DNA of 45,179 bases from a virus: the UHGV virus genome UHGV-1374413. One strand, given 5' to 3'. Numbering within the stretch: the first letter of the stretch is position 1; each line of letters begins with the position of its first letter. A program made the position numbers and the translations under genes. Under the pieces are notes generated by a model. It was not told the DNA's origin and did not search any database. It saw only the letters and a program-made list of their open reading frames with translations. Positions 3,804-7,791 of the stretch are shown here, piece by piece.

Positions 3804-5150
3804 CTATAATGATATTGTTCCTTCGATATAATAAGGTTCATTAGCATCTACTGTACTATTAGGTTCAAATGTTATTTTTAGTTCTCCAGAAGTAATCATA
3901 GTTATATTATATATAGCTGATGTATTCATATATGGATTTATTTTCACTTTTGAATACTCTGCATAACTGCTTATTTTTTGTGAAATATTTGTTGGTAACT
4001 TTGCAAACTCCATTGTTCTTGAAGTAATATTCTTTACTGATCCTTTAATAAATAACAAATTAGTATCATTTATAGTAACAAGTCTATATTTTGGTTGGTT
4101 TGCGGTCCCAGCTTGTGTCGTTCCGTTAATTAATGAAAGTGGTTGCCACCCAGTGTCAATATAGTCGTTACTCAAGTTTTCCCATTCTATCCAACCAATT
4201 GATTCTGAATAAGTTTTAATATATAAATCGTTACGATTATACGAAGAATAATATATTTTCCTACCATTTCCTTCGTTCTTTTGTATAAAAACATATCCAG
4301 TAGCTCCACTAGGAGAATCTTGAGCTTTTAGGTTAAAATAAAATCCCGATTTTGCAGATAAAAGATTATCATTAGTCATTGGATTACCATCATAAAAATT
4401 AGTTATTTGATTACCACTATCATTAGTTAATTTATGTTTTTGCCAATTTGTAAAATCGGGTAAAGTAGGTGTTTCTCCTGGTGGACCTGGAGGTCCTTGT
4501 TCGCCTTGTAGACCTTTTTCTCCAGTATCGCCTTTAGGCCCCATAGGACCTGTTGGACCTGCTGGACCCATTTCACCATCTATTCCGTTTGCTCCTTGTT
4601 CGCCTTTTGGCCCTTGTGGACCAGTATCACCTTTATCGCCTTTTGGCCCTCTAAAACGTTCAATGTCTTTTAACATAATTCGTTCAACGATATCATCTAA
4701 CATATCAACATGAACTTCTTTACCGATTGCTTTTGTGATACCACTATCGTTTACTTTGAAATAGAAATCTGCCACATGTGAACTATCATCAGTCAAATTG
4801 CTACTATCAATTAAGAATAATTTTGCTTGTACACGTCCTACGTGCTTTGTTACATAGTCAGATACGTTGTAACGCACATGACCTTCTTCTGCTTTCACTA
4901 CTTCTAATTCCTCATTAGTAAAAATAGAGCCATCTTCAGCAATTAGATGCAATACTGGTTTGAATGTCGTTTGATTTAAATTTACTGGAATAAATTCTTT
5001 TTCTTCGCTAAAGATATTACGCTTTTTAATATGAATATCTAATACAGAAGTAGAGTTATCCATTGTGTAAAGATTGACATTGATATTACCTAAGTCAATA
5101 CCTCGCTCATCTATACGAGCAATTACTTTACCTTGCTTGAACGTTTCCAT
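3804..5150 (-). CDS. Tail fiber protein with a collagen-like Gly-X-Y triple-helix region
   Basis: 448 aa. About 60 residues of uninterrupted G-X-Y repeats ([59 protein letters not shown]). Position within the tail/baseplate module. Confidence 0.8.
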
Positions 5151-5202: not shown

Positions 5203-6966
5203 CTATGTTTGTTTGTATCGGTCACGTATAAAGTGTTCACCTTTTAGACCGATTTTTTCATATAAACTTTTAATTGTATTCGCTTGATGTTGCGCCCAAC
5301 GTACATCAGTAGCGTATTGGTGTGTACCAGGATGTTGAGGGTTCCAACGCATTCTATATAATGTTTGTTGTCCTTGATCGATATATCCTCTTCTAACAAA
5401 CTTAGCACCACCGATGATAGCTTTAGAAGGAGTAGTCCAACCTTGATTTCTAGCAAATGTCATAGCGTAGTTAGGGTTGCTGTCATAAGCAGCAATACCG
5501 AAGTAGTTATAAACGCCGTAACTTCCGCTAGCGAAAGCGGAACGACCATATCCACTTTCTAAGAATGCATGTGCAATTAAGTAGATTTCGTTCACGTTAT
5601 ATTTCTTACAAGCTGAAGCGAAAGCTTTACCTTGTCCGTACAGAGTACCTTTACCTTTGAGTATTTTATTTAACTTGCTTACTGATATGCCTTGATATTT
5701 ACCTAAGTTAAGCATTTGATATTTCTGAGTTGAACTGTTCCAAATCTCTAAACTGTTCATCGCTTTTAATGTAGCCGTTCGACTAGCATTGTACCAACCT
5801 GTACCGTAGTTGATTTGTGGCCATTTTGTCATTTGAATATCAACCGCTCGTTTAAATGAGTAATTACTGTAAACAACCATAACTTTAGGCTTACTAGATA
5901 CTTTTTTTCTTGACGACGATGATGAAGATGAAGATGAGTTTTCTTTCTTCTTAACTTTAATTTTAACTTTAGTTGTTTTACCATTTCTCACTTCTTTGAG
6001 TATCTTGTTTTTATCTTTGTATAACCCAAGTAGTGCTTTTTCAACCCTGTCAAGAACCTTAGAAGAAGGCTTACCGTCGATTAGAGGGTCAAAGTTACCA
6101 TGTTCCATAACGGTACGCCATAAGTCGTCAGTAACCTTCACTGATGATTGTTTAATTGGAATTTTATACCTTTGTAGTTGCCCAACGCCAAATATGATTG
6201 CGTGTAGTTCGTTAAGTAAGAAATCTGTTTTGGTATCGCTGTAATCTCCACACACTTCAATCACAATATGGTCAGGTTCACTAGGCACTTTGATATCTGT
6301 ATATCGTGGTTGCCAGATGTGATGACGGTCAATGTAGAAGTGTGGATATTCATCGTTAGAAATGTATTTGTTTCTGTCATAATACATCTGTTGTACAGAA
6401 CACATTGTTCCGGCATTCTTGACTGATATACCTTTAGGCTTACGAGTTCTTAATTCTCCATGAGCAATTCTGTGGGGGATGAATGTAGGAAAATCAACAT
6501 TCTCATCATCTTCTGCGGTTACTGTAATAATCTTTCGTTTTTTAAGTGGTTCTTTTTTAGTTTTCGGTTTCGGTCTGTCTGAAGAATCGCCTTTGTCATT
6601 AGATGGTGTTGAAGTTTTTGGTTCTTCTTTATAAGGTGGTCGAACGAAGTAGAGACTACCACCCATACCGTTATAATTATGATTAACATACGCAGCTTTG
6701 CTACCGTAATAACTGTTGGCATTGTACCAATTTTGGTCAATACATTTAAAGTTACTTTTATCGCTAGGACCAATAACTATTGCAGTATGACCTGCCGAAC
6801 CATAAGTCCAAACTGCTATATCACCCGGCTTAGGAACGAAATTAGAAGCATTTGCATATATCTTCCAATCACGGCTGGGGTACTGACTACGACGTGCCAT
6901 CGCATTCGCATTACCCCACGTTCTAAATCCCCAATATCTGTCAAAGATATAGTTAGGTAAATCCCA
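5203..6966 (-). CDS. Virion-associated peptidoglycan hydrolase, exon 2 (rest of CHAP domain + C-terminal glucosaminidase domain)
   Basis: The frame opens WDLPNYIFDRYWGF...GHTAIVIG (CHAP His region). The C-terminus has an endo-beta-N-acetylglucosaminidase-like region (YLIAHAFLESGYG...YNYFGIAAYD). Poly-Ser linker. Architecture matches phi11-type tail-associated muralytic enzymes. Confidence 0.8.
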   Translation of the reverse strand, partial: WDLPNYIFDRYWGFRTWGNANAMARRSQYPSRDWKIYANASNFVPKPGDIAVWTYGSAGHTAIVIGPSDKSNFKCIDQNWYNANSYYGSKAAYVNHNYNGMGGSLYFVRPPYKEEPKTSTPSNDKGDSSDRPKPKTKKEPLKKRKIITVTAEDDENVDFPTFIPHRIAHGELRTRKPKGISVKNAGTMCSVQQMYYDRNKYISNDEYPHFYIDRHHIWQPRYTDIKVPSEPDHIVIEVCGDYSDTKTDFLLNELHAIIFGVGQLQRYKIPIKQSSVKVTDDLWRTVMEHGNFDPLIDGKPSSKVLDRVEKALLGLYKDKNKILKEVRNGKTTKVKIKVKKKENSSSSSSSSSRKKVSSKPKVMVVYSNYSFKRAVDIQMTKWPQINYGTGWYNASRTATLKAMNSLEIWNSSTQKYQMLNLGKYQGISVSKLNKILKGKGTLYGQGKAFASACKKYNVNEIYLIAHAFLESGYGRSAFASGSYGVYNYFGIAAYDSNPNYAMTFARNQGWTTPSKAIIGGAKFVRRGYIDQGQQTLYRMRWNPQHPGTHQYATDVRWAQHQANTIKSLYEKIGLKGEHFIRDRYKQT

Positions 6967-7211
6967 CAATTTTGTTGCGATAACAGGCGCTACTTGTTAC
7001 CTTCTTCATATTTCTATGAACGTTCAGACTATATCATCAACCTATTAGGTTGCTCCCCGTTTCCACTCGCTTGAGTGTACGTCTTTCGACTAGTCGTTGC
7101 ACGTTCCTATTTCTAGGCTTCGCTCATGATTGCCCTCGTCTTATGCATTAGGGTTTCCCATGAATTAGAGGAGTTTGCTATAACGATTACTCGTTAAAGG
7201 TGCTAGATTTA
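6967..7211 (-). other. Group I self-splicing intron (245 nt, no internal ORF) interrupting the tail hydrolase gene inside the CHAP active-site motif
   Basis: Exon 1 ends ...GMYGYQC (last nt U), exon 2 begins WDLPNYIF, and the intron ends in G. The intron carries R-like (GUGCAACGACUAGUCG) and S-like (GAUAUAGUCUGAAC) elements able to form P7 (GACUA/UAGUC). Removing it restores an in-frame CHAP domain. Confidence 0.75.
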
Positions 7212-7328
7212 ACACTGATACCCATACATACCATCTATATTGACACCTAATTTGTTATCAGCTAACCATTTAGCCCATGCTACTACCTGTTTGGCTGTTG
7301 GTTTGCCTGATGAAGGTAAAATTGCCAT
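7212..7328 (-). CDS. Virion-associated peptidoglycan hydrolase, exon 1 (39 codons, N-terminus of CHAP domain)
   Basis: Hand translation MAILPSSGKPTAKQVVAWAKWLADNKLGVNIDGMYGYQC. RBS GGAAGGTGGATAA upstream of the ATG at 7328. Ends in the CHAP catalytic Cys context. Confidence 0.75.
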
Positions 7329-7348: not shown

Positions 7349-7378
7349 ATAATAAAAAGCCGATACACGAATGTATCG
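7349..7378 (-). terminator. Rho-independent terminator
   Basis: Minus-strand hairpin GUCGAUACA-UUCG-UGUAUCGGC followed by UUUUUAUUAU, downstream of the XhlA-like gene. Confidence 0.5.
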
Positions 7379-7380
7379 AC

Positions 7381-7791
7381 TTATTTGAATATCAACGGTG
7401 CAAGTTGCATGGCTGTTCCGAGTAAAGCAAATATTCCACTAATAATTGCTGTTGCTATCCCAACATTCCATTTTTGTTTATCACTTACCGTTGCATTAAT
7501 CTTGTCTAATTCATCTGAATGTTTATCTACTTGATTTTTAACTTCGTTGAAACCGTCTTTAAAACTAGTTATTTCTCCACTTATTTTTTCTAAGTGTTTT
7601 TCAGAACGTTCCTGTGATTGATAGTTTTTTTCTTGTATTGCGTTTTGAGTATCAATCTTACCGTTTAAAGCGATAATTTGCTTATCAGTCTGATTGATCC
7701 GTTCATAAATTTTACCGTTACTTCTTTCAAATTCGTGGCGTTTAACGTAATCATTTTCTTCTGACAATCTCAGCACCTCCGAAGAATGCAA
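7381..7791 (-). CDS. XhlA-like protein (coiled coil with C-terminal transmembrane anchor)
   Basis: 136 aa. Long coiled-coil region and hydrophobic C-terminus (WNVGIATAIISGIFALLGTAMQLAPLIF), as in XhlA-family haemolysin/lysis-associated proteins. Confidence 0.6.
   Translation of the reverse strand: MHSSEVLRLSEENDYVKRHEFERSNGKIYERINQTDKQIIALNGKIDTQNAIQEKNYQSQERSEKHLEKISGEITSFKDGFNEVKNQVDKHSDELDKINATVSDKQKWNVGIATAIISGIFALLGTAMQLAPLIFK

Follow-up and report, generated by a model that had tools for sequence, protein, structure and literature searches.

The locus described here lies on the minus strand of a viral genome (UHGV-1374413), whose 45,179 nucleotides were analysed as a whole and are called the window in the following. 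It contains the gene of a tail-associated peptidoglycan hydrolase, interrupted by 245 nt between a short exon 1 and a long exon 2 and flanked by genes for tail proteins and a collagen-like tail fibre. The features of the gene and its immediate surroundings are:

7357..7382, minus strand: terminator-like hairpin, an 11-bp stem followed by a T-run (consensus scan; context, outside the intron)
7212..7328, minus strand: tail-associated hydrolase gene, exon 1 with 39 codons, MAILPSS...DGMYGYQC (ORF list and translation)
6967..7211, minus strand: group I intron of subgroup IA type, 245 nt, ORF-less (RF00028 match, covariation on alignment A1, boundaries kept in 45 other copies)
5203..6966, minus strand: exon 2, from WDLPNYIF... 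to the stop codon (translation, Pfam, alignment to CHAP lysins of solved structure across the junction)

The interrupted hydrolase gene

As called, the exon 1 ORF extends from 7328 to 7209 and ends with ...DGMYGYQC and a TAA stop codon. Its ATG is preceded at a distance of 4 nt by a strong ribosome-binding site, GGAAGGTGGA, and the first 29 residues agree at every position with the N-terminus of the StB27 hydrolase, which is uninterrupted. The last exon 1 codon, TGT, encodes the catalytic cysteine of the CHAP domain and supplies, as its third base, the U of the 5' splice site (U7212). The long ORF 6969..5203 begins with TTG-TGG-GAT, where the apparent TTG start codon consists of the last three bases of the intron; the sequence upstream of it, ...UGUUAUCGCAACAAAAUUG, contains no Shine-Dalgarno motif. 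Exon 2 contributes the remaining CHAP domain including His99 in the motif GHTAIV, a linker and a C-terminal glucosaminidase domain. The linker between the two domains is rich in lysine and carries a run of nine serines, KKKENSSSSSSSSSRKK.

Removal of 7211..6967 joins TGT to TGG in frame and yields a protein of 626 amino acids reading ...GYQC|WDLPNYIF..., with a predicted ligated-exon sequence of ...TATCAGTGT|TGGGATTTA... and a predicted junction-spanning peptide of ...YGYQCWDLPNYIFDR... The spliced product aligns without gaps to the uninterrupted homologues of StB27, IME1348_01, SN8 and phage 53, all of which read ...QCWDLPNYIF...; in StB27, the closest relative for the hydrolase region of the window, the DNA at the junction is CAATGT|TGGGAC. 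The spliced protein matches the Pfam CHAP profile (PF05257) with 45.9 bits over positions 5-81 of 81 at a cut-off of 26, compared with 36.6 bits over positions 15-81 for the unspliced ORF of 588 amino acids, and its C-terminal part matches the Glucosaminidase profile (PF01832) with 54.2 bits at a cut-off of 30.2. Cys39 in QC and His99 in GH align with those of CHAP lysins of solved structure such as LysK, and the cysteine is embedded in the motif G-x-Q-C-(M/W)-D-L. Annotations of the orthologues read tail-associated cell-wall hydrolase, and the host gene is a staphylococcal tail-associated (virion) peptidoglycan hydrolase with CHAP and glucosaminidase domains.

The original prediction, made from the letters of the window, had described a 39-codon ORF with a good ribosome-binding site ending in the CHAP cysteine motif, a long ORF starting abruptly inside the CHAP domain, and between them a 245-nt gap without ORF, beginning after an exon-terminal U, ending in G and leaving an in-frame junction upon splicing. 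All these elements were recovered, the coordinates and sequence strings included; the boundaries it proposed, a 5' splice site after U7212 and the terminal G at 6967, are exactly right.

The terminator-like hairpin separates the upstream phrog_2990 gene (7791..7381) from the exon 1 ribosome-binding site. Near it, the minus strand shows no sigma-70-like promoter, and the hydrolase gene may thus depend on read-through across the hairpin. On the other side of the hydrolase gene, the downstream tail-fibre gene (3804..5150, minus strand) contains a block of collagen-like G-X-Y repeats.

Identity and boundaries of the intron

The interrupting element belongs to the group I intron family. The Rfam model RF00028 (Intron_gpI) matches 7221..7004 on the minus strand with 104.3 bits and an E value of 3.8e-26 (gathering score 50), and the alignment is not truncated, covering model positions 1-253 of 253. 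Across the 45-kb window, no second Rfam match came up at a threshold as lenient as E<=1, and at this threshold the window also lacks further introns of the kind of the second StB12 hydrolase intron or the terL intron of PH15. The GC content of the intron is 41.6% compared with 34.8% for the window.

The model places the conserved splice-site U at the third position of the Cys codon (7212), where it pairs with G7203 of the internal guide sequence. The intron starts directly after this U with UAA, an in-frame stop codon. At the other end the Rfam model stops at P9, while the intron runs on through P9.1 and a conserved tail to its terminal (omega) G, G6967, the last three bases being TTG. This 3' end was set by comparison: 10 homologous introns, which interrupt two different host genes, have the conserved sequence ...AUCGUAAC(A)AAAUUG in common, and the similarity among them stops right after the terminal G. 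The omega G is present in 10 of 10 aligned homologues, and 38 of 38 further copies end in ...TTG.

Two other placements were considered and rejected. A 3' splice site at G7004, the end of the Rfam match, would leave 37 extra nucleotides and shift the frame into a stop; moreover, the conserved 3' tail with P9.1 reaches G6967 in every homologue. A slide of both boundaries by one base (7210..6966) would give the same ligated sequence; against it stand an intron end in U instead of G and the invariant U•G pair, which involves U7212.

The 245 nt have no coding capacity on the sense strand. Stops occur in all three sense frames, no sense-strand ORF reaches 25 amino acids, and an intron-encoded homing endonuclease ORF, which would mark a mobile intron, is absent from this strand. 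The opposite strand contains two tiny ORFs of 26 and 33 amino acids.

Secondary structure and covariation

The secondary structure was drawn by hand on the window sequence and evaluated on a MAFFT alignment (A1) not fitted to any structure, which comprises 7 hydrolase introns and 4 introns from tail-tube genes of Twort-like myophages (n=11). As controls, the 3' partners were slid by 1-3 columns and 500 shuffles were run. Covariation was used instead of a minimum-free-energy fold since the latter cannot show the P3/P7 pseudoknot; the fold of the single sequence recovers most hairpins with z = -2.5. The helices, all on the minus strand, are:

7200..7215: P1, exon GUGU and intron UA (7215..7210) with the internal guide sequence UAGCAC (7205..7200); covariation on A1
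7181..7196: P2, hairpin UAACGA GUAA UCGUUA; 4 of 6 pairs compensatory, 100% of cells paired
7053..7173: P3, 7173..7168 with 7058..7053; compensatory pairs; encloses P4, P5, P6, P6a, the P7 5' strand, P7.1 and P7.2
7163..7158 / 7129..7124: P4; invariant
7153..7150 / 7136..7133: P5; compensatory pairs
7123..7121 / 7103..7101: P6; compensatory pairs
7117..7114 / 7109..7106: P6a; compensatory pairs
7026..7097: P7, the helix that binds guanosine, A7097 and GACUA 7095..7091 (C7096 bulged) with UAGUCU 7031..7026; 6 of 6 pairs invariant, paired in 11 of 11 sequences
7090..7081: P7.1, GUC GAAA GAC; 3 of 3 pairs compensatory
7077..7064: P7.2, CACUC AAGC GAGUG; 3 of 5 pairs compensatory
7038..7052: P8, hairpin CAACCU AAU AGGUUG; 3 of 6 pairs compensatory
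7020..7005: P9, UUCAUA GAAA UAUGAA; 4 of 6 pairs compensatory
7001..6995 / 6985..6979: P9.1, GGUAACA...UGUUAUC; 4 of 7 pairs compensatory, followed by the conserved 3' tail AUCGCAACAAAAUUG

Throughout P1-P9.1, 99.2% of 746 cells of the alignment are standard pairs, compared with 34-45% in the slid controls, and both-sided (compensatory) changes are found in 34 of 68 pairs versus 0-5 in the controls. The observed values of pairing and covariation were reached in none of the 500 shuffles. All core helices are drawable and 97-100% paired, the P3/P7 pseudoknot included. Compensatory changes occur in every helix except P4 and P7, which are invariant and about which covariation is consequently uninformative; their invariance is as expected for the catalytic core.

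The original prediction had pointed to sequences resembling the group I R and S elements and able to pair as P7, and had named a comparison with RF00028 and a drawable P1-P9 structure as the means of checking it. Both lines lead to the same result. The elements correspond to CAACGACUAG (7099..7090) and GAUAUAGUCUGAAC (7035..7022), which together form P7; the helix agrees with the RF00028 consensus GACUA / UAGUC and forms the pseudoknot with P3. With the family match, the covariation, the junction and the orthologues in agreement, the description as a compact ORF-less group I intron in a tail gene is supported.

The splice-site wobble U7212•G7203 in P1 is invariant in 11 of 11 sequences. 3 of the 6 P1 pairs are compensatory between the hydrolase and the tail-tube introns and covary with the different exons. 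In the Rfam alignment, the stretch of P7.1 and P7.2 is inserted with respect to the general model. On the basis of these two covarying hairpins between P7 and P3' we place the intron in subgroup IA as a whole of the Michel and Westhof classification, to which the introns of the phages Twort and T4 also belong. The 3' tail AUCGCAACAAAAUUG is kept across introns of different host genes, and divergence sets in immediately past the terminal G. A candidate P10 of 4-5 bp, judged by eye, can be formed by the first bases of exon 2 (UGGG) with the loop of the guide sequence (..UCUA) in all variants but that of IME1323_01, in which it is poor; an alignment of the 3' exon by this helix is plausible.

Distribution and phage lineage

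Besides the window copy, 45 other copies were found in staphylococcal phages and prophages, all inserted at the QC|WD site, 243-248 nt in length and opening with an in-frame TAA or TGA. They derive from seven named phages whose sequence was inspected and from 38 further loci. The inspected phages with the intron at QC|WD include IME1318_01, StB12, IME1323_01, HOB 14.1.R1, phiIPLA5 and PH15. Of the further loci, two lie in bacterial genomes (S. petrasii and S. caeli) and 36 in viral contigs; their introns measure 244-248 nt and end in TTG. BLAST matches in E72, BE01 and BE21 fit the same pattern, as judged from the matches alone and not from the junction sequence of these phages.

All 45 intron-bearing alleles end exon 1 with CAG-TGT, whereas the four intronless alleles vary between CAA and CAG and between TGT and TGC. 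This usage is suggestive of a constraint that P1 may impose on the exon, in a comparison of related sequences with only four intronless alleles.

The window phage is a Staphylococcus siphovirus or prophage of the Azeredovirinae resembling StB12 and IME1318_01, to whose genomes it is ~89% identical. No deposited phage record identical to the window was present in the collection searched. Two prophage-derived IMG/VR contigs come close to it in the part that contains the intron: L027 (IMGVR_UViG_2690316334_000001) is 98.4% identical over 6.6 kb with a 100% identical intron, and L043 is about 96% identical to the same part of the window with an intron identity of 99.6%. The phage lineage of the window thus exists in public isolate genomes.

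Probable splicing of the intron and alternative scenarios

An orthologue of the intron is already known from the same site of the gene ph24 of S. epidermidis phage PH15. The gene, annotated as 'hydrolase', is deposited as a joined CDS of two pieces; the PH15 genome has just one other joined CDS, terL, whose intron carries a nested SegB-like endonuclease ORF. According to the passage in PMC7235722 that cites the PH15 source paper (Daniel, Bonnen & Fischetti 2007, J Bacteriol 189:2086), the phage has two introns, for both of which splicing in vivo has been shown. In the literature found on StB12 or phiIPLA5 introns, nothing was specific to the hydrolase intron. By analogy with the reported splicing in PH15, the window copy is presumably spliced as well. 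In view of the family match, the structure, the junction and the orthology to the PH15 intron, we consider it highly probable that the minus-strand segment 7211..6967 is a group I intron without ORF that splices itself, is of the Twort-like subgroup IA type and interrupts the tail-associated hydrolase gene between the codon of the catalytic Cys and the adjoining Trp codon.

The standard group I pathway is the best explanation of the reaction, which would proceed as follows. P1 would form in the precursor mRNA between GUGU at the end of the exon and GCAC of the guide sequence, with a U•G wobble marking the point of cleavage. Exogenous guanosine, docked in P7, would then attack after U7212. A short P10 between UGGG and the guide-sequence loop would align the 3' exon, and the terminal G6967 would replace the guanosine in the G-site, leading to ligation of the exons. 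The ligated product would encode the continuous virion hydrolase of 626 amino acids with its CHAP and glucosaminidase domains. Unspliced RNA, on the other hand, is predicted to yield only the 39-aa peptide because an in-frame UAA opens the intron and no ribosome-binding site precedes exon 2.

The fixation of the ORF-less intron at a single site, the catalytic Cys codon, in no fewer than 46 siphophages and prophages of staphylococci from several host species, with its closest relatives in the tail-tube gene of Twort-like myophages, might be taken to mean that it is not a passive passenger. It could spread between unrelated phage families during co-infection, by means of a trans-acting free-standing endonuclease or by reverse splicing, or it could gate the production of the active virion hydrolase through its splicing; we regard this proposal as improbable.

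A very improbable reading is that splicing is regulated or partial and serves as an expression gate, for example through coupling to exon 1 translation or to the level of GTP, and tunes the amount of active hydrolase late in infection. In its favour, the first intron codon is an in-frame stop in every copy and would halt ribosomes at the 5' splice site, and the intron is retained at a single site in many phages without a homing endonuclease gene. A stop at the 5' splice site is a common arrangement in phage introns, as known from the literature on the T4 td intron. On the other hand, close relatives such as StB27 do without the intron, which makes it dispensable, and selfish persistence accounts for the distribution equally well.

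A splicing-dead relic would leave the gene permanently split into the 39-aa peptide and a 588-aa protein started at TTG 6969, which would lack the catalytic Cys and retain a structural role in the tail tip only. Separate annotation of two CDSs in several public records and the structural virion role ascribed to the phi11 hydrolase (discussed in PMC4124061) would be in line with such decay, but it is rendered very improbable by an intact ribozyme core under purifying selection on structure (34 compensatory pairs, 99.2% pairing), by the conservation of the U•G pair in 11 of 11 aligned sequences and of the terminal G in every copy examined, by the missing Shine-Dalgarno motif at TTG 6969 and by the splicing reported for the PH15 orthologue in the part of PMC7235722 concerned with it. 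A self-splicing intron accordingly remains the preferred reading of the locus.

Consequences for annotation

The practical value of this assignment lies in annotation repair, as several public records split the hydrolase gene into separate CDSs. The gene is mis-annotated in the records of IME1318_01 (L004), IME1323_01 (L009), StB12 (L002) and phiIPLA5 (L003), where the split CDSs are labelled 'bifunctional autolysin' (twice), 'endo-beta-N-acetylglucosaminidase' (twice) and 'peptidoglycan hydrolase' (three times). In the phiIPLA5 record, exon 1 is not annotated and the CDS begins inside the intron. If the splice is ignored, the hydrolase is called as a 39-aa orphan and a 588-aa protein devoid of the catalytic cysteine. 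Cloning of the enzyme as an antimicrobial requires the spliced sequence of 626 amino acids; in the study on phage DW2, a truncated hydrolase construct had low activity.

Relation to known introns

The intron of the window raises no new question and adds one more copy to a well-documented pattern, namely that group I introns of Staphylococcus phages occupy those codons of a gene which are most conserved and essential for catalysis. Its counterpart in PH15 ph24 resides in the same gene at the same QC|WD site, is likewise ORF-less and is ~89% identical, although PH15 belongs to Rockefellervirus and the window phage to the StB12 / IME1318_01-like Azeredovirinae. The hydrolase introns of PH15, phiIPLA5, E72, BE01, StB12, IME1318_01, IME1323_01 and HOB 14.1.R1 measure 243-246 nt and show 82-90% DNA identity over the compared stretch. 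The aligned copies possess the helices of the window intron and differ from it in sequence only, with much of the difference being compensatory in P2, P5, P6a and P9.1.

The nearest relatives outside the hydrolase gene interrupt tmpA, the tail-tube gene (Twort orf142-type) of Twortvirinae myophages such as Fi200W/G1, phage 110, VL10 and phiSA_BS1, and are ~76-77% identical over the core. They share P7.1, P7.2, P9.1 and the conserved 3' tail AUCGUAACAAAAUUG with the window intron, and they are also ORF-less and inserted in a virion structural gene. In contrast, host gene and phage family are different, the P1 guide sequences are matched to their own exons, and the introns form tandem arrays of 2-4 per gene instead of the single intron of the window hydrolase. 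Such tandem ORF-less arrays, some of whose introns are the nearest relatives just named, are located at 558-1748 of L013, 1448-2054 of L012 and 1096-1743 of L011; Silviavirus VL10 has four introns, none of them annotated.

Two further introns concern the hydrolase gene itself. In phage DW2 (NC_024391.1; L054, about 345-695), a putative intron of 349 nt is present in the same gene, is also ORF-less and also cuts the region of the CHAP Cys motif. It differs from the window intron in length and in its UAGUCUAGUC-type J7/9 region, and identity of the two was ruled out by sequence and by site, GA|QC, two codons (6 nt) upstream of the window-type site. The CHAP Cys motif thus hosts two distinct insertion sites, 6 nt apart. 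The DW2 paper (2014) claimed that no tail-hydrolase intron had previously been reported. In StB12 (JN700520.2; L002, 3081-3348, plus strand), a second, different group I intron matching RF00028 with 94.8 bits is found just upstream of the conserved CHAP DQNW motif, and the deposited record splits the gene into three CDSs. No intron of this type is present in the window, its exon 2 being continuous.

Some staphylococcal phage endolysin introns, as that of lysK, carry homing endonuclease ORFs. The endolysin-gene group I introns of phages 85, G1 and K resemble the window intron in that they, too, break up the gene for a peptidoglycan hydrolase in a Staphylococcus phage, and differ from it in their host gene, an endolysin of the lysis cassette and not a virion-associated hydrolase. 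Endolysin-gene group I introns were reported in 20 of 205 staphylococcal phages (PMC6507118), and group I introns are widely documented in lysin, morphogenetic and replication genes of these phages.
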